Numbered from the stretch's first letter, positions 3,647 to 30,751 are shown. The stretch: 64,000 nt of DNA from Candidatus Omnitrophota bacterium (GCA_030650275.1 JAUSEK010000012.1:472-64471); one strand, 5' to 3'. Made by a program: numbers and translations. The notes: generated from the letters alone by a model not told the origin.

Positions 3647-3660
3647 AGATAATTCGGCAC

Positions 3661-5763: not shown

Positions 5764-6159
5764 CTAAAAACGCATGGACTTAAGACGCCGGGCCAATTGC
5801 TTGCGGTAATTCTTATGGAACACCTCTTCAAAATCATAAGCGTTCTTGAAACTCTCGTAATTGTCATGGGCGTCTTTGGAAAGGATCTTATGCTCCACCA
5901 GATGATACACCATATTGCCGAAATCATCCGTGGTCTTCACCCCCCAGAAATTAAGGATGGTCAGGATCATGGGCCCGAATTTCTTGAGCAAAAGCGCCCT
6001 GATGCCCTCCAGGAGTTGGGCCCCGGTGACGTGCTTGGCTCTTTTGAACCTTTTCTGGCTGTAATGCAGGGCCTCCATGATGAATTCGTAGGCCTCGGGG
6101 TGATAGCGGGGATCCGTCGTACAGATCTTCGAAATGATGCTGTAGAACTCCTCATTCAT
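5764..6159 (-). CDS. conserved hypothetical protein (small alpha-helical; resembles a Planctomycetes/Verrucomicrobia-restricted family)
   Basis: 131-aa ORF with no recognisable catalytic motif. The family call is from memory only. Confidence 0.5.
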   Translation of the reverse strand: MNEEFYSIISKICTTDPRYHPEAYEFIMEALHYSQKRFKRAKHVTGAQLLEGIRALLLKKFGPMILTILNFWGVKTTDDFGNMVYHLVEHKILSKDAHDNYESFKNAYDFEEVFHKNYRKQLARRLKSMRF

Positions 6160-11634: not shown

Positions 11635-12552
11635 TTAAGATGAAAAAGAACCCAGAAGGCGGGTCAAATTGCCCCCAAAAACCATGCCTCTTTCGCGGGA
11701 GGACAGGAGGGTTTGGCTGATGACCCCCAGGGAATCCGTAAAGTTCTGGTTGGCGGGAAAATCACTGCCCCAAAGGATATGGGCAATATCCGTCACTTCC
11801 AAAGCTCCTGATAAAGAGGCCGGCGACTTGGAGCCGCTGGTGTCAAAATATAAATTCCTGAAATACTCTCCCGGCGCTTTGCCCAAATCCTTGACAAAAT
11901 TGCGCTTGCGCAGCATCGCATACGTGGAATCAAAACGTTCTTTGACGATGGGCAAAACCCCGCCATAGTGGGCAAAAATAAAATTCACGCCGGGATGCCT
12001 TAAAAATACGCCGGACATCATCATTTTGCCGATGCACATGGACACGTCAAAAACATATTCCAAGACCGGGCTTAACAAGGGGTCGCGCACGCGCTGTTCG
12101 CCGATGGGGTCCATGATCTGGGGATGGACGTGGATGGGAAAATGTTTGGCGCGGGCGAACGCGTACACGTCTTCAAACAGAGCATCGTCGAGATAGGTCC
12201 CCTGATAACTGGACGCGAGGGAAATGGCTTTGAGCCCCAGGTCTTCCATGCGCTTTAATTCCCGGGCGATGGCTGATGGGGCGTCCACCGGAATAATGCC
12301 GGCACCAACGAAACGGTCCGAATATTTTTTCACAAGATCGGCAATGGAAGAATTATATACGGAACACAATTTCTCCCATCCGCCCATGTTCAGGTGCGCG
12401 TCGCTGGTGGGATAGACCAGCAAAGCCCGGTCCACATGATACTCGTCCATGAGACGCAGTTGTTTGTCCGCGTCCGACCAATGCTCCTTGAAGAACGCTG
12501 TTTTCTGCGCCACGTCGGGCGGCATATAATGGCTGTGCGCGTCAATGACCAT
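11635..12552 (-). CDS. amidohydrolase_2 family protein (ACMSD/LigW-like metal-dependent aromatic-acid decarboxylase or hydrolase)
   Basis: 305-aa ORF with an N-terminal IDAHSH metal-binding motif and a TIM-barrel amidohydrolase layout. It is the last gene of the co-directional biosynthetic block. Confidence 0.8.
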   Translation of the reverse strand: MVIDAHSHYMPPDVAQKTAFFKEHWSDADKQLRLMDEYHVDRALLVYPTSDAHLNMGGWEKLCSVYNSSIADLVKKYSDRFVGAGIIPVDAPSAIARELKRMEDLGLKAISLASSYQGTYLDDALFEDVYAFARAKHFPIHVHPQIMDPIGEQRVRDPLLSPVLEYVFDVSMCIGKMMMSGVFLRHPGVNFIFAHYGGVLPIVKERFDSTYAMLRKRNFVKDLGKAPGEYFRNLYFDTSGSKSPASLSGALEVTDIAHILWGSDFPANQNFTDSLGVISQTLLSSRERGMVFGGNLTRLLGSFSS

Positions 12553-15909: not shown

Positions 15910-16749
15910 CTATAAAATAGCGACTACCCTGCTCCAACCCGCTCCCGCATTCCTTACTTTAACAGGTAAACAAGACACCGTAAACCCAAACGGTTTCGGG
16001 ATGGTGCCTAAATTACCCAAACGTTCCATGTGACAATACTCGCGCTCGCGTCCGAGGAAATGGCAGGGCCAGATCTTACTCTTGTCCTTGGTGGTCAAAA
16101 ATTCCTTGAACATCAAAAAACACGGGCGGTCAAGGCCGATGGTGTCAATGCCCATCATCTTGATGCCCGCATCCAGCAAATACTCCACGGCATCGGGCAT
16201 CATGCCCACATATTTGTTCACGTAATCGTCGGTCCCCAACAACTTGTCCCCACCCGTATAAATGAGCACAATGTCCATTGGCTTTAAAATATATTTGATC
16301 TTTTTCAGCGCGGCAATGACATGGTCCTTGGTGATGGCATCGGGGAATTTCAAATGGGTGAGATCCAAAACCACGCCGGGGCCATAACACCACTCCAGCG
16401 GCACGTCCATGATCTGTTTGGCCGGCTTGCCCTCGCACATACTTCCATAATGGAACGGCGCATCCACATGAGAGCCCATGTGCACCGACGAATGCACCAC
16501 TTCCAAAGACGGCATTTCGCCGCCGGGGATCTCCTCTGCCGTAGCAACACGCTCGCCTTTGTCAAAACGCTCCTGGCCCCCGGGCTGTTTGCTCATCACC
16601 ACCCAGTTGAAATGTTCAACACCCTGCGCATGCGTGATGCGGTCGATCTTGGCATCGTGCGTTTCGACAAGTGTGTCATCTATGGGTAAACTAAGGTCTA
16701 TAATTTTCATAATGCCTGGATTCCCGACAGAAACATTCGGGAATGACAA
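15910..16749 (-). CDS. cyclase-family protein (PF04199-like, kynurenine-formamidase fold; HxGxHxDxPxH metal motif)
   Basis: 279-aa ORF with a VHMGSHVDAPFHY motif. The first 13 codons (MSFPNVSVGNPGI) are encoded by a repeat element, so the true start is probably Met14 at 16710. Confidence 0.8.
   Translation of the reverse strand: MSFPNVSVGNPGIMKIIDLSLPIDDTLVETHDAKIDRITHAQGVEHFNWVVMSKQPGGQERFDKGERVATAEEIPGGEMPSLEVVHSSVHMGSHVDAPFHYGSMCEGKPAKQIMDVPLEWCYGPGVVLDLTHLKFPDAITKDHVIAALKKIKYILKPMDIVLIYTGGDKLLGTDDYVNKYVGMMPDAVEYLLDAGIKMMGIDTIGLDRPCFLMFKEFLTTKDKSKIWPCHFLGREREYCHMERLGNLGTIPKPFGFTVSCLPVKVRNAGAGWSRVVAIL
16716..16748. repeat. REP-like palindromic element, copy A (ATTCCCGAC-N9-TCGGGAAT core)
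   Basis: CTGGATTCCCGACAGAAACATTCGGGAATGACA. Related copies at 24765-24837 and 29840-29867. Sits at the ACP/cyclase gene junction. Confidence 0.6.
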
Positions 16750-16754
16750 TTGGA

Positions 16755-17039
16755 TTAATGCTCATGCCCACAGCCGCAGGAATGGCCGCCACTGGCCTGG
16801 GCCTTGGATCTTAGAATGCCGATGATCTCATTGAACGAATGCGTCTTTTTCAATTCATTGTCCTTAAGCGCGATGCCCAGTTCCTTTTTGATACCGACCG
16901 AGATCTCCACCATTTCCGTTGAGTCAATGTCCAAGGACTCGTCCAGTTTTGCGCCGGGGATGATCTCGCTGTCCTTGATATCCAGAACCTTTTTGAAGAT
17001 GGCTTTGACCTTGCTTTCGAGGTCTGTCTGGGTCTGCAT
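16755..17039 (-). CDS. acyl carrier protein (phosphopantetheine Ser in a DIDSTEMVEI motif) with a Cys/His-rich C-terminal tail
   Basis: 94-aa acidic ORF with an ACP four-helix pattern. The C-terminus is SGGHSCGCGHEH. Confidence 0.8.
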   Translation of the reverse strand: MQTQTDLESKVKAIFKKVLDIKDSEIIPGAKLDESLDIDSTEMVEISVGIKKELGIALKDNELKKTHSFNEIIGILRSKAQASGGHSCGCGHEH

Positions 17040-17060
17040 TTTTTTCTCCGTTTAATGTTT

Positions 17061-18293
17061 TTAAAGTTTCTGCAGGACTAAAACGCAGTTGATCCCGCCG
17101 CGTCCGCGGTTGATGATCAAAGCATTCTTGATAGTTTTTGCCTGCGCTTTGTTGGGGCAATAATCCAGGTCGCATTCCGGGTCCGGTGTCTGATAATTGA
17201 TGGTCGGCGGCACCATGCCGTGTTCCATGGCCAGCACCGTCGTGATGACGTCCAAAGCCCCGCAGGCGCCCAGCATATTGCCGAACACCGACTTAGGCGC
17301 GGACACCGGTACCTTCTTCGCGTAACCGTTAAAGGCCTGTTTGATGGCTTTTGTTTCGGTGATGTCGCCCAAAACTGTTGCAGCACCATCAGCGCAAATA
17401 TAATCAATGTCTTTGGGGGAAAGCCCGGCATCGTCCAGGGCTGATCTGATGGCACGGGCCAATTGTTTGGCATCCGGCGCCGGATCAATGCGGTTGACAG
17501 CATCGGTGGTGGACGCATAACCGATGATATTGGCATAGACATGGGCTTTACGCTTGATGGCCCGTGACTGCGGTTCCAGCGTCAAGACCCCGGCACCTTC
17601 GGCAATGGCCAAACCATCGCGGTTTTTGTCAAACGGCCGATACGCTTGGCGCGGGTCATCATTGCGTTTGGACAAAACCCCTGACGTGTTGCAGCACAAA
17701 AGCGCGTAGGGCGTCACCGGCGCTTCCATGCCCCCGGCCAAAATAAAATCGCATTTGTTACGGATGATGGTCCTGGCCGCGTAGCCGATGGCCATCAAAG
17801 AACTGGCCCTGTCCGCGACAATGGTCTTGGAAAAACCTTTGATGCCGTAATGAATGGATATCTGCCCCTGCGGTGCCGCGGGAAACCACGCGGAGGCCAT
17901 GAAAGGACTCACCCCTTCCCGGCCTTCCAGATACATATCGCGCAACTCGGTCTCGGCATACAGCCAACCGCCCAAGGCATTGCCCATAAAGATCCCGACG
18001 CGCTTTAAATCCTCGTCAGGCAGATTAATGCCCGCGTCATTCAGGCACATTTCAGAAGCCACCAAAGCCATATGCGAAAAAAGATCTATCTTCTTTAAAA
18101 GCCGCGATGAGACATTGCTATAAGCATCCAATTCTTTGACAGTCCCGGCAATGCGCGACGGATAAGCGCTGGCGTCGAAACGCTCGATCTTTTCAACCGC
18201 GCTCCTGCCATGGGCCACATTGGCCCAGAACACTTTTTTGTCCATCCCTGACGGGGATATGACGCCTAAACCGGTGATCGCAATGGGGTCCAT
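17061..18293 (-). CDS. ketosynthase-like chain-length-factor partner (KS-beta/CLF-like; catalytic triad replaced)
   Basis: 410-aa thiolase-fold KS homolog. The active-site Cys position reads ADRASS (Cys to Arg). Both catalytic His positions are changed (CADGAAT has Asp, FGNMLGA has Asn). 4-nt overlap with the upstream KS gene. Confidence 0.8.
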   Translation of the reverse strand: MDPIAITGLGVISPSGMDKKVFWANVAHGRSAVEKIERFDASAYPSRIAGTVKELDAYSNVSSRLLKKIDLFSHMALVASEMCLNDAGINLPDEDLKRVGIFMGNALGGWLYAETELRDMYLEGREGVSPFMASAWFPAAPQGQISIHYGIKGFSKTIVADRASSLMAIGYAARTIIRNKCDFILAGGMEAPVTPYALLCCNTSGVLSKRNDDPRQAYRPFDKNRDGLAIAEGAGVLTLEPQSRAIKRKAHVYANIIGYASTTDAVNRIDPAPDAKQLARAIRSALDDAGLSPKDIDYICADGAATVLGDITETKAIKQAFNGYAKKVPVSAPKSVFGNMLGACGALDVITTVLAMEHGMVPPTINYQTPDPECDLDYCPNKAQAKTIKNALIINRGRGGINCVLVLQKL

Positions 18294-19561
18294 TAGGAAT
18301 ACCTTTGCAAGGTCATGGCTGAGTGAATGCCGGAAAAACCACTGGATGTCTTAAGAATACAATTAACTTTCTTCTGTATCGCTTCGTTGGGAATGTAATA
18401 CAGATCACATAAGGGGTCCGGTTCCTGCTGATTGATGGTCGGCGGCAAAATGTTGCGCTCAAAGATCAGGGAACTCAAAGCCAGCTCTATTCCGTTGGCA
18501 CCGGCCAAAGGATGGCCGATCATGGACTTCACCGAACTGATGGGAACTTTATACGCGTACGGGCCCAAGGCCATCTTATAAGCGCTGGTCTCGAACACAT
18601 CGTTCTGGCGCGTCGAGGAACCATGGGCGTTGACATAATCAATGGTTTCGGGTTTGATGCCGGCATCTTCCAGGGCCAAGGTAATGCTGTCGGCCATGGC
18701 ATCGCCTTCCGGCGGCAGATCGGTCATGTGATAAGCATTGCAGGTGGTGCCGAAACCGGTGATCTCGCAATAAATGCGCGCCCCGCGTTTGAGGGCGTGC
18801 TCCAATTCTTCAACGACCAAAAGCCCGGCGCCTTCGGAAATGACAAAACCGTTGCGTTGATTGTCGAACGGCCGTGAGGCCCCGGCCGGATCATCATTGT
18901 GCACGGAAAGGACATTGACAGTGTCAAAAGCGCCGAACGTGATGGGGGTGACGGGCGCTTCACTGGCGCCGGTGAGCATGATGTCCGCGTCCCCGTCGCT
19001 GATGGCCTCAAAAGAAAACCCGACGGAGTCCGTGCCCGCGGTACAACCCGTAGAAATGGTATTGCAAACACCCTGAAGGCCATACTTGGCGGAAAGTTCA
19101 CTCGAAGGCGTGTTGAACATCGCGGCATCGTATAGGTCCGGACGGACAATAAGCGGATTGATGGGTTTCTTGCCGCTGTCCGTGACCAGGGCGAATTCTT
19201 CTTCCATGTATTTGGTGCCGCAAATGGCATTGGCCAAAGACACGCCCATGCGCTCTTTGTCCACTTTGAAGAGATCCAAACGGGAATCCTGCAAGGCCAT
19301 GCGGCCGGCCACCATGGCGAATTGGACATAACGGTCCATGCGTATGGCTTCTTCAAACGTAAGACCCAAAGCCACGGGGTCAAAATCACGCACCTGGGCC
19401 GCGATCTTGGTGTTAAAGAGCGACACATCAAATTCTGTGACCCGGCGCACAGCCGAAACGCCCTTGATCATGGCGCTGTAACAGGCATCATTGCCGATGC
19501 CGTTGGGCGCGATGATGCCGACGCCCGTGACAACCACCCTGCGTTTCTTATTCTTATTCAT
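18293..19561 (-). CDS. beta-ketoacyl synthase (KS-alpha type, intact Cys-His-His)
   Basis: About 422 aa. Active-site Cys in ISTGCTAGTDS, His in NAHGSST and MIGHPLAG. The ATG at 19559-19561 overlaps the stop of the preceding gene. Confidence 0.9.
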   Translation of the reverse strand: MNKNKKRRVVVTGVGIIAPNGIGNDACYSAMIKGVSAVRRVTEFDVSLFNTKIAAQVRDFDPVALGLTFEEAIRMDRYVQFAMVAGRMALQDSRLDLFKVDKERMGVSLANAICGTKYMEEEFALVTDSGKKPINPLIVRPDLYDAAMFNTPSSELSAKYGLQGVCNTISTGCTAGTDSVGFSFEAISDGDADIMLTGASEAPVTPITFGAFDTVNVLSVHNDDPAGASRPFDNQRNGFVISEGAGLLVVEELEHALKRGARIYCEITGFGTTCNAYHMTDLPPEGDAMADSITLALEDAGIKPETIDYVNAHGSSTRQNDVFETSAYKMALGPYAYKVPISSVKSMIGHPLAGANGIELALSSLIFERNILPPTINQQEPDPLCDLYYIPNEAIQKKVNCILKTSSGFSGIHSAMTLQRYS

Positions 19562-19989
19562 CAATGCCTCAACGTTTCGTCCATCAAATTGTTATGGCTG
19601 GCAATGACCTGCCAGCGGTCCTTACCTTTTTTCCACGTCATGGTGTAGCGGCGGATGACCCGCTTGCCGCCTTCCGCGTTGATCTCAACCGTAAAGATCA
19701 AATATTGCAAAATGGCGATGTCCCCGTGGAGTTTCATCTGAACAGGACGCAATTCGCAGATGGCGATATTCGTATTCTTGGTCCAGAACCCCACCCATTT
19801 CTCCAGCCACGGACGGTCAACGGGAATGGGGCTTTCATGGCCATAGCCGATCATGTCAGGATGAATGTATTTAATAAATTCATCCACACGCTTGTTGATC
19901 AAATGGTCCCAATGCGTTTCCACGCAACCCCACACCTCACGCTCTTTTTCCCCCCAATACTCTGGGATCCATGACGCTAATTGACTCAT
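19561..19989 (-). CDS. SnoaL-like/NTF2-superfamily protein (putative polyketide cyclase)
   Basis: 142-aa ORF with an alpha+beta cone-fold pattern. Translationally coupled to the KS gene. Confidence 0.65.
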   Translation of the reverse strand: MSQLASWIPEYWGEKEREVWGCVETHWDHLINKRVDEFIKYIHPDMIGYGHESPIPVDRPWLEKWVGFWTKNTNIAICELRPVQMKLHGDIAILQYLIFTVEINAEGGKRVIRRYTMTWKKGKDRWQVIASHNNLMDETLRH

Positions 19990-21002
19990 ATGGCCTCCGC
20001 TTTTAATTTTAAACCAAATGCGTTCTTCACATGTTCCACACTAAAGAATTTTCCCGTCCGCTCAACCTCATGCACCATATCCACGACGCGTTCGTTGAGC
20101 GGCGCATGGCCATGCAGACCTTTAGCCAAACGCACCGCTTCCCCGTTAATGAACTCTATTTCGCTCGTCTTGCCGCGCAGGATGCTCTGCAAAATAGAAC
20201 CGTACAACGGTTCTTTGCTCAAACCGGTCAGGGTTTTGTTGATGATCCCAGCACTTTGTTCAAGCGGCATATTGGCCAAACCTAAAATTCTTTCCTTCGG
20301 GAAATCCGGCATGGAAACCATCTCGATCTTCGCCTGCCGCACAATGTCCAGCCCTTCCTTGAGCAGCAGAATGCTCAAACGGCACAGGTCCAGATCAGCA
20401 AAGGTCTCCTGCATGGACTTGCCGACCAGCGCCGGGATGCAATTGTTGAAATTCACAAAAAGTTTCAGGTACTTCATCCCCATGATGTCGGGGCTCATCA
20501 CCACTTTAAACGCCTTGCCCAGGACCTCACCGGCCTTATGCGCGGCCGGGTCCAAAGGCGCCAAGGGACGGCCGATGATCCAATCGCCTTCAAAATTGAA
20601 AGTCACCTCGCCGGGTTTGACGTAAGTAGCGCCGAACATCACGATGCTTGACATTTGCCGGCCGCGGTCAAGATGGTTGCTCAATAAATGGTCCGCCTGT
20701 ACGCCGTTCTGGCTTGTCAAAACAAGGCCTGTTCCCAGATATTCACTATTTTGCTCAAAGGCCTTTTCCAGGTCTTGCGTCTTGACGGTAAAAATGACCA
20801 GGTCATAGGGTTTGTCCAGACGCAAGGCGGTGCGCACGCGAATATTCTCACTTCCCCGCACGCCCTTGATGGTCAGACCATTGGCCTTGATGGCCTTCAC
20901 CTGATCGGGCCGGCCCACTAAAAGCACGTCCTGCCCTGCCTTGGTCAAATAACCGGCGACAACACAACCGATGGCGCCGGCACCGATGACCGCGATCGTC
21001 AT
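19986..21002 (-). CDS. 2-dehydropantoate 2-reductase (ApbA/PanE) family NAD(P)H-dependent oxidoreductase
   Basis: 338-aa ORF with an N-terminal IAVIGAGAIG Rossmann motif and the KPR two-domain architecture. Confidence 0.8.
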   Translation of the reverse strand: MTIAVIGAGAIGCVVAGYLTKAGQDVLLVGRPDQVKAIKANGLTIKGVRGSENIRVRTALRLDKPYDLVIFTVKTQDLEKAFEQNSEYLGTGLVLTSQNGVQADHLLSNHLDRGRQMSSIVMFGATYVKPGEVTFNFEGDWIIGRPLAPLDPAAHKAGEVLGKAFKVVMSPDIMGMKYLKLFVNFNNCIPALVGKSMQETFADLDLCRLSILLLKEGLDIVRQAKIEMVSMPDFPKERILGLANMPLEQSAGIINKTLTGLSKEPLYGSILQSILRGKTSEIEFINGEAVRLAKGLHGHAPLNERVVDMVHEVERTGKFFSVEHVKNAFGLKLKAEAI

Positions 21003-21268
21003 GCCTGCCCCTTATAATGAAGACCAACCTCATCCATGATACGGATCATCAACGAATAGAAGGCCTTGGGCACTTCCGTCGTGAAAGCGGCCACAATGTC
21101 CTTTTCCTCAACCTGCGTCGAGGCGCGCTGCTGCGCGTTCTGTTCGGCCTTTTTATTCACCACTTCCTGCGCGATGCCGCGATGGAAAATGGGAATAAGA
21201 TTGAGCATCCTGTTGTATTTAGCCAGGGCCGTGGGCTCCCAGGCCATTGTCGTGTGAACGCTGACCAT
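20999..21268 (-). CDS. hypothetical small protein (89 aa) coupled to the radical-SAM gene
   Basis: Overlaps both neighbours by 4 nt. No confident motif; possibly a PCP_red-like accessory domain, as often found next to B12-binding radical-SAM enzymes. Confidence 0.45.
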   Translation of the reverse strand: MVSVHTTMAWEPTALAKYNRMLNLIPIFHRGIAQEVVNKKAEQNAQQRASTQVEEKDIVAAFTTEVPKAFYSLMIRIMDEVGLHYKGQA

Positions 21269-21272
21269 TATT

Positions 21273-22745
21273 TTACTTCGCCGCGGACACGCGCGAGTTC
21301 GCCTCCCATTTGGAAATGTTATTCATGAAATCCTTCACGCACAATTTCACCTTGATATGATAGTTGCTTTCCATGATCCGGTGGATGCGTTCCGGCTTGG
21401 AATAATATTCACGCATGCACCAGGCCCCCAAACGGCCGACCTCCTCGATGCTGAGATGATCGGTGGGGATGACCGGATGCTGGAAATCCCAGTCCTTGAG
21501 ATCGATCTTGTCCGGATCGAACCATCCTTTCTTGATCCCGTAACGCCAGTCCGGAGAATTGGGCACCGGCGTCAAATAATCCAGGGCAAAAATGTCCGAA
21601 TCGATCTCATCGGCAACGCGCAAACGTTCCTTGATCTTCGCTTCCGTGTCCTCTTTGAGGCCGATCAATACCGTCCCGACACTGCCGATATCATTTTCAC
21701 GCAAAATATCGACCGTCTTTCTGATCTGCGCGATGGTCACTCCTTTGCCGGTCTTGCTCAAGGTCATATCGTCCTCGACCTCCACACCCGTTAACGCCAA
21801 AAACAAGCCCGCTTTTTTCATCAACGGCAGGATCTCGTGCTGGGAGACCCATTGGTCGGCACGGCCCAAACACACCCAGTCGATCTTGTTGCCGCGCTTG
21901 AGTTTCTCCTCGCAGAATTCGATCATGGCGGCGGTGTCCGTATTGAACGCGTCATCCTGAAAAACAACCGTGTTGATCCCGTATTGCTTCTCTAAAATAT
22001 CCAGTTCATCAACGATGCGTTTGCCTTTCAGCCCCCGCCAGGACGTGAAATCTTTGGCGGCGGTGCGGCTGTCATAAAGCGCCCATTCATAACAAAAATG
22101 ACATTTGCCCGGACAACCGCGGGACGTCATCAATTCCGCGAACGGTTTCCAATAGGTGTGCCCGACATATTTGTCCATGGGGAACAGATCATAAGCCGGC
22201 ATGGGCAGGACGTTCAAATCAGGGATCAGATCACGGTGCGGCCCCACGACAATGGCCCCGTCTTTCTGACGGGACACCAGGCCCGGGATCTCCCGTTCAT
22301 TCCTGGGATCGCCCGCGGCCATATTATTGATCAGGTCCTCCATGGTCAATTCCGCCTCCCCGATCATGATGTAGTCAATGGTCGGGTTCAAGCGCATCTG
22401 GCGTTCGTAATCGCCGGAATACCATAACCCCCCGGCCACGGTCCTGACCTTAGGGCTAGCTTCTTTGATGATGCGAAGCCCCTCATTAAAATACCAGATG
22501 ACCGCGGCACCGCAGGTGGAATGCAGCAATTCCCCGACAAAAACAATGTCCGGCTTGCTGTTTTGAACGAATTTCAGCATCGCCTCCCAGTCCATGTCCA
22601 GCGCGCGGGAGTCGAGCACTTCCACCTGGGCTAGATTTCTTTCACGCAAATAGGCGGCCAGCTGCGCGTGCATCTGATTGGCGGCTTTGTGGTTGCCGTG
22701 TGAATCCCATGCTTTCAACGGCGGTGTCAAAAATAGAACTTTCAT
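21273..22745 (-). CDS. B12-binding radical SAM protein (class B rSAM, methyltransferase/BchE-like)
   Basis: 490-aa ORF with an N-terminal cobalamin-binding Rossmann-like domain and a CPGKCHFC (CxxxCxxC) radical-SAM cluster motif. An AGGAGA Shine-Dalgarno sequence lies upstream. Confidence 0.85.
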   Translation of the reverse strand: MKVLFLTPPLKAWDSHGNHKAANQMHAQLAAYLRERNLAQVEVLDSRALDMDWEAMLKFVQNSKPDIVFVGELLHSTCGAAVIWYFNEGLRIIKEASPKVRTVAGGLWYSGDYERQMRLNPTIDYIMIGEAELTMEDLINNMAAGDPRNEREIPGLVSRQKDGAIVVGPHRDLIPDLNVLPMPAYDLFPMDKYVGHTYWKPFAELMTSRGCPGKCHFCYEWALYDSRTAAKDFTSWRGLKGKRIVDELDILEKQYGINTVVFQDDAFNTDTAAMIEFCEEKLKRGNKIDWVCLGRADQWVSQHEILPLMKKAGLFLALTGVEVEDDMTLSKTGKGVTIAQIRKTVDILRENDIGSVGTVLIGLKEDTEAKIKERLRVADEIDSDIFALDYLTPVPNSPDWRYGIKKGWFDPDKIDLKDWDFQHPVIPTDHLSIEEVGRLGAWCMREYYSKPERIHRIMESNYHIKVKLCVKDFMNNISKWEANSRVSAAK

Positions 22746-22795
22746 AACGTTCTCCTGTTATTGTACGGGCGGGGTTACCCCGCCCCTACGTTCAT

Positions 22796-24298
22796 TTAAA
22801 ACCACGACGTGACCAGCGGCTTGCCTCCCGGCGTCTGGTCAGTGGTGACTGTTTTGATCTGTGTGTATTCATACAGCCCTTCTTTGCCCAATTCCCGTCC
22901 AAAACCGCTTTGTTTATACCCGCCGAACGGCACGGCATTGTCAAAAGCGCCATAGGTATTGATCCAGACCGTGCCGCAACGTAAACGTTTGGCCACACCA
23001 TTGGCCTTGGCCAGATCCTGCGTCCACACCATGGCCGCGAGACCATACTTGGTTTCATTGGCCAGATGAACCGCCTCATCAACGGATGTAAAAGGCATCA
23101 CGCACAATACCGGGCCAAAAATTTCTTCCTGCGCGATGGTCATGTTGTTGCGCACGTCAATAAAGATCGTGGGTTCAAGATAAGCCCCTTTAGGATTTGT
23201 CCCCGCCGGAACTTTACCGCCGCACACCAATTTTGCCCCTTCTTTCTTGCCCTGTTCGATCAAACGCAAAACAGCGTCGCGATGGGTAGTATTGACCAAA
23301 GGACCGAACTCGGTCTCAAAACTGTCCGCCGGGCCTATCGTTAATGTTTGGGCGCGTTTCACCAGTTGCCCGACGAATGTCTTATAAATTTTGTCCTCCA
23401 CCAAAAGCCGCGACCCGGCCGTGCACATCTGTCCCTGATTCATAAAAATGGAAGCCAAAGTCCCGCCCACCGCCGCTTCCATATTGCAATCGGCAAAAAC
23501 GATGTTGGGAGATTTGCCGCCCAATTCCAGCGTCAATTTCTTAATGCTCTTGGCGGCCTGGGCCATCACCGCTTTTCCGGTTTCTGTTGAGCCGGTAAAA
23601 GACACCATATCCACCTGGGAATGGGAAACCAGCTCGCTGCCGGCCTGGGCACGTGAAGAACTGATGATATTTAAAACACCTTTAGGTAATCCGGCCTGGG
23701 CGATGATCTTGCCTAAAGCCATGACCGCAACACAGGCGGTCGGCGATGGTTTTAAAACAACGGTATTGCCGGCCAGTAAAGCCGGAGCGATCTTCCACGC
23801 GGCCGTGATCAAAGGATAATTCCAGGGAATAATGGCCGCCACAACACCAACAGGTTCCCGGCTGACAAGACACAGATGAGGGGACGGTATTTCTATGGTC
23901 TCGTTATTTAACGGGGTCTCGAAATTTCCAAAATATTCAAACGTATCCGCGCAGGTCGGGACATCAATGAAGGTCGCGTGCTTGATGGTCTTACCGGTTG
24001 ACCAGCATTCCAGGTCCGCTAATTCTTTGGCATTCTCCCGGATCAGTTGGGCGATGCGCAATAAAAATTTTCCCCGTTCGGCCGTGGCCATTTGCGGCCA
24101 GCGGCCGTGGTCAAAAGCCAGGCGAGCGGCGTTGACAGCGATCTCAACGTCCACGGCATCAGCGTCCGCCAAGCGCGCGAACACCTCGCCGTTGGAAGGA
24201 TTAACGCAATCAAAATATTGACCGCTCAACGAAGGCGCTACCTTGCCTTCGAGCAACAAATCAAATTTCTCTATTTTTGATCCTATTATCATATTCAT
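22796..24298 (-). CDS. NAD(P)-dependent aldehyde dehydrogenase
   Basis: 500-aa ORF with a catalytic Cys in a QGQMCTAGSR context, plus ELGGKSP and FTGSTETG motifs. Confidence 0.9.
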   Translation of the reverse strand: MNMIIGSKIEKFDLLLEGKVAPSLSGQYFDCVNPSNGEVFARLADADAVDVEIAVNAARLAFDHGRWPQMATAERGKFLLRIAQLIRENAKELADLECWSTGKTIKHATFIDVPTCADTFEYFGNFETPLNNETIEIPSPHLCLVSREPVGVVAAIIPWNYPLITAAWKIAPALLAGNTVVLKPSPTACVAVMALGKIIAQAGLPKGVLNIISSSRAQAGSELVSHSQVDMVSFTGSTETGKAVMAQAAKSIKKLTLELGGKSPNIVFADCNMEAAVGGTLASIFMNQGQMCTAGSRLLVEDKIYKTFVGQLVKRAQTLTIGPADSFETEFGPLVNTTHRDAVLRLIEQGKKEGAKLVCGGKVPAGTNPKGAYLEPTIFIDVRNNMTIAQEEIFGPVLCVMPFTSVDEAVHLANETKYGLAAMVWTQDLAKANGVAKRLRCGTVWINTYGAFDNAVPFGGYKQSGFGRELGKEGLYEYTQIKTVTTDQTPGGKPLVTSWF

Positions 24299-24302
24299 AC
24301 GG

Positions 24303-24374
24303 AATTATGGGGACACAATACTTAATTCCTAATGCTTGTCAAACGGTTGAATTAAATATTGTGTCCCTATAATT
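24303..24374. repeat. 72-bp palindromic element with AATTATGGGGAC termini (second copy of the ITS element family)
   Basis: AATTATGGGGACACAATA ... TATTGTGTCCCTATAATT with an 18-bp stem. Intergenic between the ALDH and aldolase genes. Confidence 0.55.
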
Positions 24375-24376
24375 CA

Positions 24377-25426
24377 TTATTCCACCGGTACATTCGTCCA
24401 TAATTGAAAAATACGGCTGCAAGGCGCGTACCATTTGGAAATGCGCGCGAAATCGCCTTTTAAGAACATTTTCTTCTGCGTCGTGGCCACGAACGGGTCT
24501 ATTTGCCGGCTGAACACCGCCCGCCACACCGCTTCCGGCGCGTTGATGACAAATTCCGCGTCCGCGTCCTGCGCGACCTGCGTGATACGGCCGTTCTCAA
24601 ATGTAAACCGGTGGGCCTGCCCTGTCTCATCCAAAATGACCGCGAGGGCCATGTTCATCGCGGTCTTGTTGCCCAATTCCTGCATCTGCGCGTCGGCATT
24701 GACTAGGCGCACGATCTCTTCGATCTGTTCTTTGGAAAATAATTTGTATTTTTTATTTTTGTCACCCCCGAATGTTTCTGTCGGGGGTCCAGAAATAGAC
24801 GTGTCTGGATTCCCGACAAAAGCATTCGGGAATGACATTTTTTTATAATGAACGTCGACCAGATCCATTTTTACTTGTTCTTCCAATTCCTGAATAAGCA
24901 CAAATGCATTGAATAGATCGTCCCCCACCGCGACAACGCCGTGGTTCTTAAGCACTACGATATTGTTTATTTTCAACGCTTCCACCACTGGCGCGGGGTC
25001 AGTCACTGATGGGGTTGTTTGGGCAATGGCTTTCACTTCACCCAGATAAAATTGCGCTTCAAATGTTTTAGGCGTGAAGCGGTCGTTGGATAAAAAGAAA
25101 CCATTGGTGTAGGTTGTATGCGTATGCAAAACGCATTGGACCTTCGGCATCGCTTTGTAGATTGCCGTGTGCATCAGCCGCTCGCTGGATGCCTTACCTT
25201 TCCCGATAACCGCGCCCTTAAGGTCCATCGTGAGAATGTCTTTGTCCGTCAAATGTCCCAGACATGTTCCCGTGGCTGTTATCAAAACAGTATCGGCATC
25301 CAGGCGATGGGAAATGTTACCGTTAAAACCAAACACCAGCCCCTTGTCCCACAACAGACGTCCGGTCCGGATCATTTCTTCTTTTATTTGTTTCTCATTC
25401 ATATCAGGTATTTCTTCGGGACCCAT
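24377..25426 (-). CDS. class II aldolase/adducin-family protein (MtnB/Ald2-like) fused to a C-terminal SCP2-like domain
   Basis: 349-aa ORF. Residues 1 to about 205 are aldolase_II (GFNGNISHR, HTH motifs). Residues about 235-349 resemble an SCP2 sterol-carrier domain (FLKGDFARISKW). A 26-aa linker, MSFPNAFVGNPDTSISGPPTETFGGD, is encoded by REP-like copy B. Confidence 0.75.
   Translation of the reverse strand: MGPEEIPDMNEKQIKEEMIRTGRLLWDKGLVFGFNGNISHRLDADTVLITATGTCLGHLTDKDILTMDLKGAVIGKGKASSERLMHTAIYKAMPKVQCVLHTHTTYTNGFFLSNDRFTPKTFEAQFYLGEVKAIAQTTPSVTDPAPVVEALKINNIVVLKNHGVVAVGDDLFNAFVLIQELEEQVKMDLVDVHYKKMSFPNAFVGNPDTSISGPPTETFGGDKNKKYKLFSKEQIEEIVRLVNADAQMQELGNKTAMNMALAVILDETGQAHRFTFENGRITQVAQDADAEFVINAPEAVWRAVFSRQIDPFVATTQKKMFLKGDFARISKWYAPCSRIFQLWTNVPVE
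24765..24837. repeat. REP-like palindromic element, copy B (three consecutive hairpins) embedded in-frame in the aldolase ORF
   Basis: Hairpins CCCCCGAATGTTTCTGTCGGGGG, TCCAGAAATAGACGTGTCTGGA and ATTCCCGACAAAAGCATTCGGGAAT, followed by a T7 tract at 24838-24847. Confidence 0.6.
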
Positions 25427-25872
25427 TCCACCAAAGGCACATAACCATGAACACCTTTGGGCGCTGTTCTTTTGCCTTCAAAAGACAAAATATCCTCGGG
25501 GTTACCCAAAAACCGCGCCTTATGTTCGGCCGGTGCTAATTGAACCGGTACGTTATGGCGTTTGGCCAAAACCGCCAGGACCAACCCTCCCATATCGCAC
25601 AAAGCCCCGCTTTTATCCGCGAATTGGCAGGCCAAAACCACTTGCTTGACCAACCCCTTAAAGAACAGGAACCCGGCCATATTGTCGCAAATCACCGTCG
25701 GAACAATGCCTTTCCTGACCAGGGCCGCGCTGTTGCCTTTGCCCGCGCTAAGGTCCGGCCTACCCTCCAGAACAAAAACAGAGGCCGTCTTTGCCGGTTT
25801 AAAGGTCTTGAAAAAACCATCGGCACAAACGCCCTGTAAAAGAACAATGGATCCCGTTTTATAATCCCGCAT
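25399..25872 (-). CDS. truncated eIF-2B/MtnA-family paralog (C-terminal Rossmann-like half only)
   Basis: The ORF is open to 26025, but the probable start is the ATG at 25870-25872 (157 aa), overlapping the MtnA stop by 14 nt. Sequence parallels the MtnA C-terminal half (VICDNMAG vs VVPDNTVG; AVLAKRHNVP vs AVLAKEFGIP). Confidence 0.55.
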   Translation of the reverse strand: MRDYKTGSIVLLQGVCADGFFKTFKPAKTASVFVLEGRPDLSAGKGNSAALVRKGIVPTVICDNMAGFLFFKGLVKQVVLACQFADKSGALCDMGGLVLAVLAKRHNVPVQLAPAEHKARFLGNPEDILSFEGKRTAPKGVHGYVPLVEWVPKKYLI

Positions 25873-26824
25873 GGATGGCGATCGCTTCCGTGATATAGGT
25901 GTTGGGCACAACGTCAAACCCCGGATAAAAACCCCGCGCCTTGGGGCCAAAGACCTTTTTATTGTTAAAGACCAAAAGTTCATCGGCATCGCGCATTTCA
26001 ATGGGCATGTCATGGCCTGTGGCAACGCCTTTGGACGGCTGGGTCAAAACGATCAGCGGAATGCCGAACTCCTTGGCCAGCACCGCGATCTGGTAAGAGC
26101 CCACTTTATTGGCCACATCTCCATTGGCCGCCGAACGGTCGGAACCGATGATGATCTTGTTGACCAGCCCCTCGGCCATCAAAGCGCCGACGGTATTATC
26201 CGGGACCACGGTCACATGCGCTCCGGCTTTTTGCAGCTCCCATGCCGTCAATTTTGCGCCCTGCATGTAAGGCCGGGTTTCCGTCGCGTAAAATTTCACG
26301 CGCCTGCCTTCTTTTAAAGCGAGGAACGCGGCCATGGCCAGCTCTCCGCTGACATTGCAATGGGTCAAAATAGGATCGCCATCGGCCATATGAGCGGCGA
26401 TCCGGCGCACACGCTCAAGACGGCGATGGCGGATGCTCTCCAGAAAACCTTCCACCGTGCGTACAACGGCCTTGCAGACATCGGCATTCTCATGGGCGGC
26501 TTTGCGCGCGACACCCGTGACAATGCCCGTCACTTCCGCGAAAGGAAAGGTCGGACGGGAATTGTTCAAGGCCAGGGCAATGGCTTCTATATCTTTGACC
26601 TTTGACTTTTGGCCTTTGGCCTCCAACAAAAAAGTATTCAAAACAACCAGAAATTGTCCAAAAGCGCGGGTTTTCATGTCCCGGATCACAGCAACCGCCC
26701 CCTTAACATTACGCACAGGGATATACTTGGTCTTTAAGGGGAGCAGGGTCTCATCAAGGACATAAAGCGTATTGCCCTTGATGTGCGCCGGCCAAAATAG
26801 TGGCGATTCGAACATATTATCCAT
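25859..26824 (-). CDS. mtnA: S-methyl-5-thioribose-1-phosphate / 5-deoxyribose-1-phosphate isomerase (MtnA, eIF-2B alpha/beta/delta family)
   Basis: 321-aa ORF with eIF-2B-related family motifs, including GSDRSAANGDVANKVGSY containing the catalytic Asp region. Confidence 0.85.
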   Translation of the reverse strand: MDNMFESPLFWPAHIKGNTLYVLDETLLPLKTKYIPVRNVKGAVAVIRDMKTRAFGQFLVVLNTFLLEAKGQKSKVKDIEAIALALNNSRPTFPFAEVTGIVTGVARKAAHENADVCKAVVRTVEGFLESIRHRRLERVRRIAAHMADGDPILTHCNVSGELAMAAFLALKEGRRVKFYATETRPYMQGAKLTAWELQKAGAHVTVVPDNTVGALMAEGLVNKIIIGSDRSAANGDVANKVGSYQIAVLAKEFGIPLIVLTQPSKGVATGHDMPIEMRDADELLVFNNKKVFGPKARGFYPGFDVVPNTYITEAIAIHAGL

Positions 26825-26909
26825 GAGCGGGTCCTGTCTTCGGTTTCCCCCACCGTGCTCGTTCCTGCGCGCGGTGGGGGTCCCCCTACCGAAGCCACCC
26901 GCTGCCAGT

Positions 26910-27677
26910 TTATCTGTTCTCTTTTTGTTTAATAAGATTCAACGCAATGTTGATGAGCGCGCCTTCGGCCATGTAATAATCCGCGTTCATGAAACCCATT
27001 TCGCCCGTGATCAGATTATCGCTGACCGCCAGAATGGACACGGCCGGGATCTTATACAATTGGGCCAATGTCAAAAATACGGAACTGACCATGTCCACGG
27101 CAATGCAGTCCCGGTCAATGGCCTTGTTCACATGTTCTTTCGTTTCACGCAAAATAGCATCGGTGGACCAGACCTTGCCCTCATGGACGGCCAGCCCGGA
27201 GGCCTTGGCCGCGGCGATCAACTGGGTGTTAAGACCGGCGTCCGGCAAGGTCACGAGCGCGTCATCCACATAATACGGGGACACCCCGTCCCCGCGCACG
27301 CAACCCGTGGCCACGATCAGATCGCCGACCTTGATCGCGCTGGACAAAGCCCCGCAGCTGCCGATGCGGATCAGACAGCCCGTTTGACCGTTGCATAAGA
27401 TCTCCGTCGTGATCGCGGTATCCGCGGCAAAACGGCCGCCGTTGATGGTGGTCACCTTGACGTCTTCATAAGTCCCCGTGAACATGGTGTATTCCATGAA
27501 CGCGAATTTCTTGACGGGATTTTTCAATTTTTTCATGACGCTTTCCATGCGCTCGCGGGGGCCCGGCACAATGGCGTATTTGCCGAAATCCATCGGCAAC
27601 AACTGCACCATTCCCATCAGGTCCTTGCCGGCCAAATGAATATCCCGGGTCATTCTTTCTTTTTCTACGATGGGCAT
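26910..27677 (-). CDS. nucleoside phosphorylase, PNP_UDP_1 family (putative MTA/5'-deoxyadenosine phosphorylase)
   Basis: 255-aa ORF with the IRIGSCGAL...VGDLIVATGCVR core typical of DeoD/Udp/MtnN-fold enzymes. Confidence 0.75.
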   Translation of the reverse strand: MPIVEKERMTRDIHLAGKDLMGMVQLLPMDFGKYAIVPGPRERMESVMKKLKNPVKKFAFMEYTMFTGTYEDVKVTTINGGRFAADTAITTEILCNGQTGCLIRIGSCGALSSAIKVGDLIVATGCVRGDGVSPYYVDDALVTLPDAGLNTQLIAAAKASGLAVHEGKVWSTDAILRETKEHVNKAIDRDCIAVDMVSSVFLTLAQLYKIPAVSILAVSDNLITGEMGFMNADYYMAEGALINIALNLIKQKENR

Positions 27678-29179
27678 ACGATCTCCTGTTTTAACAATTC
27701 CTTGTCGATCTTTCCTGTCCTGTTTTTAGGCAGGCCTTCTCTTATTTCAACGGTCTGCGGCACCTTGAAATTCGCCAAATGTTCACGGGCAAAATGACGC
27801 ACGTCCTGCGGTGTCAATGCGGCACCGGCTTTAAGCACCACAAAGGCCTTGAGCGCTTCGCCTTTGAGGGCATCCGATATTCCTATGACAGCCGCCTCCA
27901 GAATTCCCTCGTGCTTGCATAGGGCGCTTTCCACTTCCGGCGCGTAGACGATCTGCCCGGCCACCTTGATCATTTCTTTCTTGCGCCCGACGATATACAA
28001 AAATCCGTCCGTATCAAAACGCCCCAGATCGCCGGTATGGAACCACCCGTTGCGTTTGGCTAAAGCCGTGCTTTCAGGGTCTTTGTAATATTCCTGCATC
28101 ACCACCCAGCCGCGGATGACGATCTCGCCGATATCACCGTCGTGCAGGATATTATCTTCATCATCCACGATCCGGATCTCACAATTCGGCGCCGGCTTGC
28201 CGACGCTTTCGATCTTCGGGTCATTCAAAGGCGTGACCGTATTGGGCGGGCATGTCTCGGTCATGCCCCAGCCGTTGAGGAGCTTGGCGTTGGGGCAATA
28301 CTTATGGAAACGTTCCAAAATATCCGGCGAAGAGGGCGCCCCAAAAACCACCACCCAGCGCAGGGATGAAAGGTCAAATTGTTCAATATTTTTTAAGGTC
28401 AGCAGGGCCGTGTACATAGGCGGGACAATGTGAAAACACGTGACCTTGTGCCGGGCCACGTTCCTTAAAAATTCCAGCGGCTGGAAACGGTCCATCAACA
28501 CCAGGGTGATGCCGAACAGGATGCAATTCTGGATATAAATGAAACCGCCGATGTGACTTAAAGGAAGGGCGCACAATTTCACGTCGCGCTCGTTTAAGTC
28601 CACGAAATGTTTCATCGCTTCCGGCGACCCGTCCAGATGGCGGTAATTCAACAAAATGCCTTTAGGATTGCCGGTCGTTCCGGACGTGTACATGATCAGC
28701 GCCGGGTCCCCTTCCTTGACTTCGGCCGGCGGCGTGCTCCCGCTACCTAAAAGCGAGGCCCACGGCTGTTCCCACGCCAGTCCGAGCGGCTGTCCCACAA
28801 CAATAACGGTCTTAAGCAACGGCAGGGCCGCTTTTAAGACCTGAATGTCCACATCCGGCCTGTATAAAGCGATCAAAACTTCGGTCTCCGAATGCCCCAA
28901 ACAGGAGACCAATTCCTCTGTTTTGAGCATATGGTCCAGGGGCACGACCGTGGCCCCCAGATAAAACAAGGACAGATACCCGTAAACATACTCCGGGCAA
29001 TTGGGAAGATAAATGGCGACTTTAGAGGACTTGCGCACACCGGCACAGGACAGCCCTTTGGCCAATTGAAAAACCATGGCCTTAAGGTCATTAAAAGAAA
29101 CCGGCTGGTCCTTAAAGATCAGGGCCGGCTTTGTCCCAAAACGATTTGCTGAAGATTGTAAGATATTGGTAATATTCAT
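27665..29179 (-). CDS. AMP-dependent synthetase/ligase (acyl- or aryl-CoA ligase, ANL superfamily)
   Basis: 504-aa ORF with a YTSGTTGNPKG adenylation motif, a GWGMTE motif and a C-terminal Lys motif. First gene of the co-directional block. Confidence 0.85.
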   Translation of the reverse strand: MNITNILQSSANRFGTKPALIFKDQPVSFNDLKAMVFQLAKGLSCAGVRKSSKVAIYLPNCPEYVYGYLSLFYLGATVVPLDHMLKTEELVSCLGHSETEVLIALYRPDVDIQVLKAALPLLKTVIVVGQPLGLAWEQPWASLLGSGSTPPAEVKEGDPALIMYTSGTTGNPKGILLNYRHLDGSPEAMKHFVDLNERDVKLCALPLSHIGGFIYIQNCILFGITLVLMDRFQPLEFLRNVARHKVTCFHIVPPMYTALLTLKNIEQFDLSSLRWVVVFGAPSSPDILERFHKYCPNAKLLNGWGMTETCPPNTVTPLNDPKIESVGKPAPNCEIRIVDDEDNILHDGDIGEIVIRGWVVMQEYYKDPESTALAKRNGWFHTGDLGRFDTDGFLYIVGRKKEMIKVAGQIVYAPEVESALCKHEGILEAAVIGISDALKGEALKAFVVLKAGAALTPQDVRHFAREHLANFKVPQTVEIREGLPKNRTGKIDKELLKQEIVCPS

Positions 29180-29911: not shown

Positions 29912-30751
29912 TTAAACCACCTGCAACGAGAGTTTCGGGGCGTTTTGGTTTAAGTTTTCCTGTTCACATTGCCTCAAGAATTCCTCAGGCGTTTTGTAAT
30001 CCAATGAGCTGTGCGGCCTGAAGGTATTATACTCGATCCGCCATTCTTCGATCTTGTTTTTTGCCTCCTGCATGTCCGAAAAGTAATTCTCGTTTAAACA
30101 TTCATCGCGGAAGCGCCCATGGAACGATTCGACATAGGCGTTCTCAACTGGCTTGCCCGGACGGATGAAGTCCAGTTTGACCCCATGGCGATACGCCCAT
30201 TCATCCAGGACCTTGGAGATGAACTCCGGACCGTTATCCACACGGATCGAATTTGGGAAGCCTTTAAGATCGACCAGCCGCTCCAGGATCCTGACGGCCC
30301 TGAACCCCGGCAACGATGTATCGGATTCAACGGTCATGCATTCCCGGGTGTATGTGTCGACAATGGACAATGTCCTGAACTTACGCCCGCTCCAGAGTGA
30401 ATCCTGGATAAAGTCCATGGCCCAGCGCTCGTTGGGTCTGGTTGCTGACGGCAGAGGACTGCGCACAACAGCCGCGAACTTGCAACGCCGACGGATCCTC
30501 AAAGATAAGCCCTCCTGACGGTAAATCCTCTCGGTTCTTTTATGGTTAATGACCAGTCCTTCACGCCGGATGAGCACATAAAGCCTGATGTGTCCGTAAC
30601 GCCTGTGCTTCTCGGCCAGTTCTTTGAGCCGTTGCCTGATCCTATCATTAAGATCATTTGGCTTAGGGTCATAGTGCATCACCGTCCGGGACACCAACAC
30701 CAGGGTGCAGGCCCTCCGCTGGGAGAGACCGTGACGTTCGATCATGTGCAA
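29912..30751 (-). CDS. IS3-family transposase OrfB (DDE integrase core)
   Basis: 279-aa ORF with an rve/integrase core domain pattern (WAMDF...IVDTYTREC...). Confidence 0.85.
   Translation of the reverse strand: MHMIERHGLSQRRACTLVLVSRTVMHYDPKPNDLNDRIRQRLKELAEKHRRYGHIRLYVLIRREGLVINHKRTERIYRQEGLSLRIRRRCKFAAVVRSPLPSATRPNERWAMDFIQDSLWSGRKFRTLSIVDTYTRECMTVESDTSLPGFRAVRILERLVDLKGFPNSIRVDNGPEFISKVLDEWAYRHGVKLDFIRPGKPVENAYVESFHGRFRDECLNENYFSDMQEAKNKIEEWRIEYNTFRPHSSLDYKTPEEFLRQCEQENLNQNAPKLSLQVV

Follow-up and report, generated by a model that had tools for sequence, protein, structure and literature searches.

We analysed a 64,000-nucleotide stretch of DNA from a Candidatus Omnitrophota bacterium (GCA_030650275.1, JAUSEK010000012.1:472-64471; hereafter the window), with the focus on a minus-strand gene at 24377..25402 that encodes a class II aldolase followed by an SCP2-like domain. 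Our data make it very probable that this gene encodes a conserved two-domain enzyme, and that a dispersed palindromic doublet of 78 bp (24760..24837) was inserted in frame into the pre-existing, disordered linker between the two domains. The aldolase-SCP2 fusion itself is genuine, ancient and conserved across Omnitrophota.

A palindromic doublet in the linker of a two-domain protein

The open reading frame (ORF) of 349 aa that a preliminary description of this DNA had reported, with an Aldolase_II and an SCP2-like domain, is present at 24377..25426 on the minus strand and opens at ATG 25426; both domains are recognized by Pfam, and the SCP2 fold is supported by AlphaFold2 (AF2) and Foldseek. 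The deposited product has 341 aa (exact sequence MDO8675196.1) and is favored over the 349-aa version, ATG 25402 being the likely true start. This codon overlaps the TGA of the upstream short IF-2B-like gene as ATGA (25399-25402, read directly in the sequence), an arrangement that suggests translational coupling of the two genes.

The class II aldolase domain (24839..25381, minus strand; residues 16-196 of the 349-aa ORF) is supported by PF00596 (residues 16-187, E 1.2e-40, 139.8 bits versus a cut-off of 22.2), by AF2 and by Foldseek, for which the best matches were YgbL, FucA and DrdA (E 1e-13 to 1e-16, target-normalized TM score [TMt] 0.77-0.88). Residues E74, H93, H95 and H154 of the 341-aa protein align with E73, H92, H94 and H155 of what we take to be the Escherichia coli FucA sequence, the numbering of which agrees with PDB mutant names among the Foldseek matches. 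These four residues, the catalytic Glu and the metal-binding His triad, do not vary among 32 homologues. The SCP2-fold domain (24380..24760, minus strand; residues 223-349) is marginal at the level of Pfam (PF02036, residues 261-327, 22.8 bits versus a cut-off of 21.3), and a PDB sequence search with the C-terminal domain gave only weak matches (E 0.05 for the sequence alone and 0.4 for a profile), so that a fold search was needed for the assignment. The full-length fold search was dominated by aldolases and gave nothing informative on SCP2. The C-terminal domain modelled alone had a predicted local distance difference test score (pLDDT) of 91.6 in AF2, and its model matched SCP2 of Thermus thermophilus (2cx7; TM 0.84, E 3e-8), the next matches being UbiJ-SCP2 and SCP2-like alkylsulfatase domains; nearly all of its 42 PDB matches at E<=0.001 were SCP2 or SCP2-like.

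In the full-length AF2 model, residues 11-196 and 227-349 form confident domains, and the only low-confidence segment, residues 200-223 with a pLDDT below 50, is the element-encoded stretch; the linker is thus predicted to be disordered. The element is a REPIN-like palindromic doublet from which linker residues ~197-223 are translated, the peptide being (M)SFPNAFVGNPDTSISGPPTETFGGD(K). That a palindromic repeat, called copy B in the preliminary description, encodes the linker is therefore correct, with the amendment that it spans the 78 nt of 24760-24837 and not 24765-24837. Its two arms (24760-24793 and 24804-24837) have 34 nt each, are 82% complementary, are separated by a 10-nt spacer and each hold their own perfect 8-bp hairpin, and the termini of the doublet are inverted (TGTCA...TGACA). 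Unit 1, TGTCATTCCCGAATGCTTTTGTCGGGAATCCAGA (24804..24837, minus strand), is read as SFPNAFVGNP; unit 2 (24760..24793, plus strand) is inverted, being TGTCACCCCCGAATGTTTCTGTCGGGGGTCCAGA on the plus strand and SGPPTETFGGD when read from the coding strand. The RNA of the doublet folds with -49.7 kcal/mol (z = -10.3 versus dinucleotide shuffles), and none of 200 shuffles folds as well. On its 5' flank the insertion is bordered by an A7 run of the coding strand (T7 on the plus strand, 24838..24844), which provides the Lys codons K195-K196 and the A of the Met codon; the run does adjoin the element at the domain boundary, as had been noted, and the earlier range of 24838-24847 also took in an ATA. 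The 3' flank is A-rich as well (24749..24759; AAAATAAAAAA on the coding strand, encoding KNKK).

Excision of the 78 nt in silico gives an in-frame protein of 323 aa with just KKKNK left between the domains. Since the shortest linker in 81 species has 14 aa, the present linker consists in effect of the element, which must at the least be tolerated and was probably co-opted as a tether.

Only one other copy of this SFPN-type repeat family is found in the window, a lone unit at 16718..16749 (minus strand) with 3 mismatches in 32, for which zero chance matches are expected. It is intergenic, in a 45-bp spacer between the stop of an acyl carrier protein (ACP) gene and the ATG (16710) of a cyclase gene. 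The preliminary description had the same element supply an N-terminal MSFPNVSVGNPGI extension of the cyclase at 16710-16749, which turned out to be an artefact of an ORF of 279 aa opened at TTG; the deposited cyclase has 266 aa, starts at ATG 16710 (MKIIDL), and most members of its cluster have 266-267 aa. For annotation, peptides of the type SFPNxxVGNP or GxPxxxFGxD in metagenomic proteins are useful flags of repeat-derived segments and of spurious N-terminal extensions.

The family is dispersed and occurs both in Omnitrophota and in metagenomes. Loci with the orthologous gene carry further copies outside the linker: a doublet (4346-4424) and a unit (5892-5922) in L002, a unit (3647-3683) and a doublet (5905-5985) in L004, and single units in L012 (877-907) and L055 (11948-11977). 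The L012 unit (GSPIKAFGDD) is read in frame within the AMP-ligase gene of the corresponding operon, where it is part of a variable loop just ahead of the YTSGTTG motif. When metagenomes were scanned with the unit pattern TGTCAYYCCCGA-N9-TCGGGRRTCC, at least 142 units were found in at least 120 stretches. Among the matches listed, most units are in short ORFs and are probably intergenic, and 19 of 142 (about 13%) lie within long ORFs that extend for 60 codons or more on both sides of the unit. In-frame hosts on metagenome contigs are a valyl-tRNA synthetase (ValRS), a BioB-like radical-SAM (S-adenosylmethionine) protein, a FolC-like protein (FolC/Mur-ligase) and a GH1 glycosidase (L149 2381-2446; L082 737-767; L182 919-995 and 10433-10762; L200 1667-1697), and the copy in ValRS is a doublet between the catalytic and the anticodon-binding domains. 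A peptide next to the L200 copy, VIPAEAGIQ, seems to stem from a further hairpin-repeat family.

How the element may be tolerated in a coding sequence is suggested by its reading frames. The unit is open in five of six frames, and each strand of the doublet has an open frame that mirrors the one on the other strand, SFPNAFVGNPDTSISGPPTETFGGD and SPPNVSVGGPEIDVSGFPTKAFGND (SFPN.../SPPN...), both rich in Gly, Pro, Asn and Ser. Among the units listed, SFPN/GFPT frames are used by 16 of the 19 intragenic ones versus 56 of the 123 others (Fisher p = 0.002). We compared 17 doublets of 66-93 nt across loci. The lengths of those in ORFs (66, 69, 78, 93 and 93 nt) are divisible by three, except for the doublet of L182, which has 77 nt and whose second unit uses a different reading frame. 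Doublets between genes occur in any phase. Neither a target-site duplication nor an insertion-site consensus was seen among the 17. Furthermore, the locus of the homologous protein P0003 (L201, 2812-3891), which comes from a different metagenome-assembled genome (MAG; GCA_016196515.1), carries this 78-nt element at the corresponding site, with an extra small palindrome of 36 nt and one of 21 nt nested in its two hairpin loops; these lengths, too, are divisible by three. Lengths of 3n and a bias of frame are what one would expect if selection kept the reading frame intact.

We propose, then, that a metal-dependent class II aldolase is tethered to an SCP2 domain, which would bind lipids or other hydrophobic ligands, by a disordered and fast-evolving linker, into which a doublet of two inverted hairpin units of ~31-34 nt was inserted in the source lineage. 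The doublet belongs to a dispersed, mostly intergenic family that is widespread in Omnitrophota and metagenomes, and its mobilization may have been REPIN/RAYT-like or MITE-like (for miniature inverted-repeat transposable element). The protein was probably preserved for three reasons: the length of the element is a multiple of three; in either orientation there is one open frame, which gives a Gly/Pro/Asn/Ser-rich peptide tolerable in a flexible linker; and the site is a predicted unstructured tether between independently folding domains.

Several points weigh against this proposal. We infer mobility from dispersal alone, and neither a transposase nor a target-site duplication or another mobilization signature was found; the 64-kb window holds only 1.5 copies of the family. 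The SFPN-type linkers of distant orthologues may go back to one old insertion or to several. A hairpin of -50 kcal/mol in the mRNA could in principle affect translation, and the biochemical role of the enzyme is read, at low confidence, from gene context.

The linker as a probable landing site for repeats

When GTDB species were scanned with one genome each, we found 147 stretches (species-level Omnitrophota genomes) that encode the fusion, of which 80 loci were kept for the locus comparisons, and linkers were extracted by alignment across the orthologues. Between the conserved flanks the linker is hypervariable, with 14-59 aa. Part of the orthologues have a linker whose DNA is strongly structured. 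Fold z-scores of the linkers, computed versus mononucleotide shuffles, were -11.8 for the window gene and -13.0 for L026, lay between -6.0 and -6.9 in L001, L004, L009, L017 and L067, were about -5.3 in L028, L044 and L080, and were near 0 in most distant orthologues. An SFPN-type repeat is present in the linkers of L001, L004, L010 and L011 and a GC-rich palindrome in those of L003, L012 and L022. In the window, this second, GC-rich family is intergenic: a palindrome at 26825..26909 fills the spacer from the stop of a phosphorylase gene to the start of an MtnA-like isomerase gene (RNA fold of -44.4 kcal/mol). Over 35 nt, one of its arms has 88.6% identity with the linker that L012 and L022 carry in frame, and it shares 27 nt with L003. 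The linker of L020 is a 90-nt repeat that occurs twice more in the locus of this species. These extra copies (11670-11758 and 12269-12358) are inverted and about 500 bp apart, and could mark where a further small mobile element begins and ends. Linker peptides of the types PTRGHV..SPSTLP..LNVKAPQGN and VILSEAKDL..QNDG occur in many homologues. In the distant orthologues L032, L035, L036, L057 and L063, the linker contains the 7-nt tandem repeat AAGTCAC, a microsatellite that is read through three phases as an SQVTSHK heptad and is kept in frame in the coding region.

In sum, this is a natural experiment in which one linker can be compared across about 150 species, with no repeat, with this repeat, with others, with nested ones or with 7-nt microsatellites, and always with the frame kept. 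It gives direct evidence on where proteins tolerate selfish DNA and on how linkers turn over. What we find most noteworthy about the system is that several repeat families recur in a single linker between two domains. It is imaginable, as a tentative generalization for which we see the chances as somewhat less than even, that short REPIN-like palindromes with frame-symmetric, linker-compatible frames are a renewable source of inter-domain linkers and surface loops in Omnitrophota and, in all likelihood, in further uncultivated lineages, that the tether is a "safe harbour" repeatedly colonized by at least four repeat families plus nested inserts, and that the peptide of the source genome is not just tolerated but has been co-opted as the functional tether.

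Against a hotspot, it could be argued that a single SFPN-type insertion took place long ago, was inherited vertically and has since decayed or been replaced. The SFPN-type linkers of the window gene, L001, L004, L010 and L011 are indeed at nearly the same position, and pairwise identities of their arms between species are 88-100%. We consider this history unlikely, although it deserves to be kept in mind, because the SFPN-type linkers have a patchy distribution on the neighbor-joining protein tree and three linker types are present even among the clade members with more than 84% identity to the query. Moreover, at least three other repeat families are present in the same linker (the GC-rich palindrome of L003, L012 and L022, the L020 element and the 7-nt tandem repeats), and the element of P0003 has received nested inserts.

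A role of the element at the level of RNA or DNA, be it a pause between the domains, a site of mRNA processing or stability, or an antisense terminator, with the peptide being incidental, is in our estimation improbable. Such a role would be in line with the very stable hairpin and with its position directly before the T7 run on the plus strand. However, most linkers of the orthologues are unstructured, which means that the family requires no such function; consensus scans for intrinsic terminators and promoters at the element found nothing above shuffles and did not call the site; and the bias of frame among the intragenic copies points to selection on the peptide.

The orthologues reveal that the fusion is ancient. 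A search of 5.8 billion proteins gave 703 matches; the best 120 of them are all full-length fusions of the aldolase with the C-terminal domain (322-384 aa) and, wherever they are named, come from Omnitrophota MAGs. In 80 of 80 loci the ORF is uninterrupted across the junction, with conserved flanks ..VHY and KKYKLFSKEQI, and the separate aldolase and SCP2 genes for which the preliminary description had proposed to look in orthologous loci were accordingly not encountered. Most of the 80 loci and of the 120 best proteins are devoid of the SFPN-type element, as are P0005 and L202. With a profile of the C-terminal domain alone, a search of 1.84 billion representatives yielded just 81 clusters at 50% identity, in which full-length members of this SCP2 subfamily have 318-342 aa with the domain at ~200-335. 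The subfamily thus essentially exists only as a fusion.

The opposite sequence of events, in which the repeat created the fusion by recently bridging two separate genes, can be rejected. Nearly the whole linker in the source genome is supplied by the element, and the in-frame capture of a repeat that had been suggested for this gene stands, but the capture was into an existing linker: the close relatives P0005, P0009 and P0012 (82-86% identity) as well as distant ones (55-60% identity) have the fusion with unrelated linkers, and the SCP2 subfamily is met almost only as the C-terminus of proteins of 318-342 aa.

That two genes were joined artificially by a run-length error in A7/T7, as had also been suspected given that the homopolymer adjoins the element and that indel errors are possible in MAG assemblies, is excluded for practical purposes, because the independent assembly of L201 has the identical TATAAAAAAATGTCA junction with the same A7, the same insertion and the same 3' flank, and shares the exact junction sequence GTTCATTATAAAAAAATGTCATTCCCGAATG with the window gene. 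In addition, the 80 orthologous loci and the 120 best protein matches are all continuous fusions, and P0002 (90% identical) has the same linker save two substitutions. When A6 or A8 was simulated, the aldolase ORFs had 240 or 221 aa and ended in or after the element, and the conserved SCP2 N-terminus KKYKLFSKEQ was left without a start codon. A suspected assembly or annotation error is thereby removed, and the 341-aa fusion is real.

Operon context and predicted role

The aldolase-SCP2 gene is part of a minus-strand operon (window 15910-29179) with genes for an AMP-ligase, a PNP-type phosphorylase (PNP_UDP_1), the MtnA-like isomerase (IF-2B), the short IF-2B-like protein, aldolase-SCP2 and an aldehyde dehydrogenase (ALDH), followed by a B12-binding radical-SAM protein, an ApbA-type reductase, a DUF4440 protein, two FabF-like ketosynthases (KS), the ACP and the cyclase. 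The operon genes are conserved in 52-75 of the 80 loci, and the adjacent genes for phosphorylase, MtnA-like isomerase and class II aldolase in 68-75 of them. The trio resembles a dihydroxyacetone phosphate (DHAP) shunt and is embedded in a lipid/polyketide-like cluster. Just upstream of the AMP-ligase gene is an ORF for an IS3-family transposase (29912-30751; HTH_21, rve, rve_3).

No NCBIfam equivalog cut-off was reached by the aldolase or its neighbors, except for generic FabF: the aldolase scored best with FucA_Meth (117 bits versus 250) and with MtnB 71 versus 137, and the isomerase scored 195-206 bits with the MtnA models, versus cut-offs of 271-279. As a guess of low confidence from the order of genes, the aldolase may cleave a 5-substituted ribulose-1-phosphate to DHAP and an aldehyde, which would be oxidized by the neighboring ALDH. 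The presence of SCP2, of an acyl-CoA-ligase-like enzyme and of KS/ACP genes would suggest that the substituent is hydrophobic and is held by SCP2. The conserved operon (phosphorylase, MtnA-like isomerase, aldolase-SCP2, ALDH, B12-binding radical-SAM, KS/ACP) stands for an uncharacterized pathway typical of Omnitrophota and is worth study.

Comparison with known systems

Several enzymes other than aldolases likewise have a catalytic domain followed by a C-terminal SCP2 fold, as in the peroxisomal SCPx thiolase-SCP2 fusion, MFE-2 (1ikt) and the bacterial alkylsulfatases SdsA1 and Pisa1 (2cfu, 2yhe). In these, the SCP2 domain is thought to bind or deliver the hydrophobic substrate. Structures of such fusions are among the Foldseek neighbors of the C-terminal domain, and the difference lies in the catalytic partner, for which the present protein has a class II aldolase. 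We did not find an aldolase-SCP2 architecture described, no targeted literature search having been run.

Phosphorylase, MtnA and class II aldolase form the DHAP-shunt arrangement for the salvage of 5'-deoxynucleosides (PMC10986504, PMC12632272). As with Ald2/DrdA (6btd) of this shunt, the class II aldolase gene of the window is next to those of a nucleoside phosphorylase and an MtnA-type isomerase and beside a radical-SAM gene. Unlike the shunt, the operon described here has no match at equivalog level, and it has an extra SCP2 domain, the second, short IF-2B-like subunit and the KS/ACP/AMP-ligase cluster.

For the repeat, the repetitive extragenic palindromic (REP) sequences and their doublets (REPINs), which are mobilized by RAYT transposases (PMC8049555, PMC5581495, PMC3733652), are one point of reference. 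Like these, the family occurs as hairpin singlets (16718-16749) and as inverted doublets that fold to a long hairpin (24760-24837), and it is mostly intergenic and dispersed within genomes. REPINs are, however, extragenic by definition, whereas the window copy and 19 of the 142 listed metagenome units are inside ORFs. GTAG or CGTC tags are not visible at the ends of the units, and no RAYT gene was identified within the 64-kb window, where no dedicated search was made and the one transposase-like ORF noticed is that of the IS3 family (rve). As regards MITEs, the termini of the doublet are inverted, and no target-site duplication is evident in the 17 doublets.

The other point of reference, and the closest precedent, are the Rickettsia palindromic elements (RPEs), selfish palindromes that are found in frame in unrelated genes (PMC10969869, in its summary of Ogata et al. 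2000, Science 290:347, and 2002, Genome Res 12:808). Element peptides (SFPNASVGNP and similar) or palindromic repeats of Omnitrophota were not mentioned in the limited library of literature that we consulted. Like RPEs, the Omnitrophota element is a dispersed palindrome present between genes and in frame in unrelated housekeeping genes, with the ORF of the host intact, and it encodes a conserved peptide that is tolerated at surface or loop positions. It is smaller, with a unit of 31-34 nt and doublets of 66-93 nt versus roughly 100-150 bp, belongs to another phylum and is not known to be related to RPEs in sequence. From size and phylum, and as far as a comparison by description goes, membership in the RPEs is unlikely, and the element would rather be an analogue of them. 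With it, a selfish palindromic repeat family inside protein-coding genes is documented outside Rickettsia, and it differs from RPEs also in that, across orthologues, several repeat families are found in a single linker between domains.

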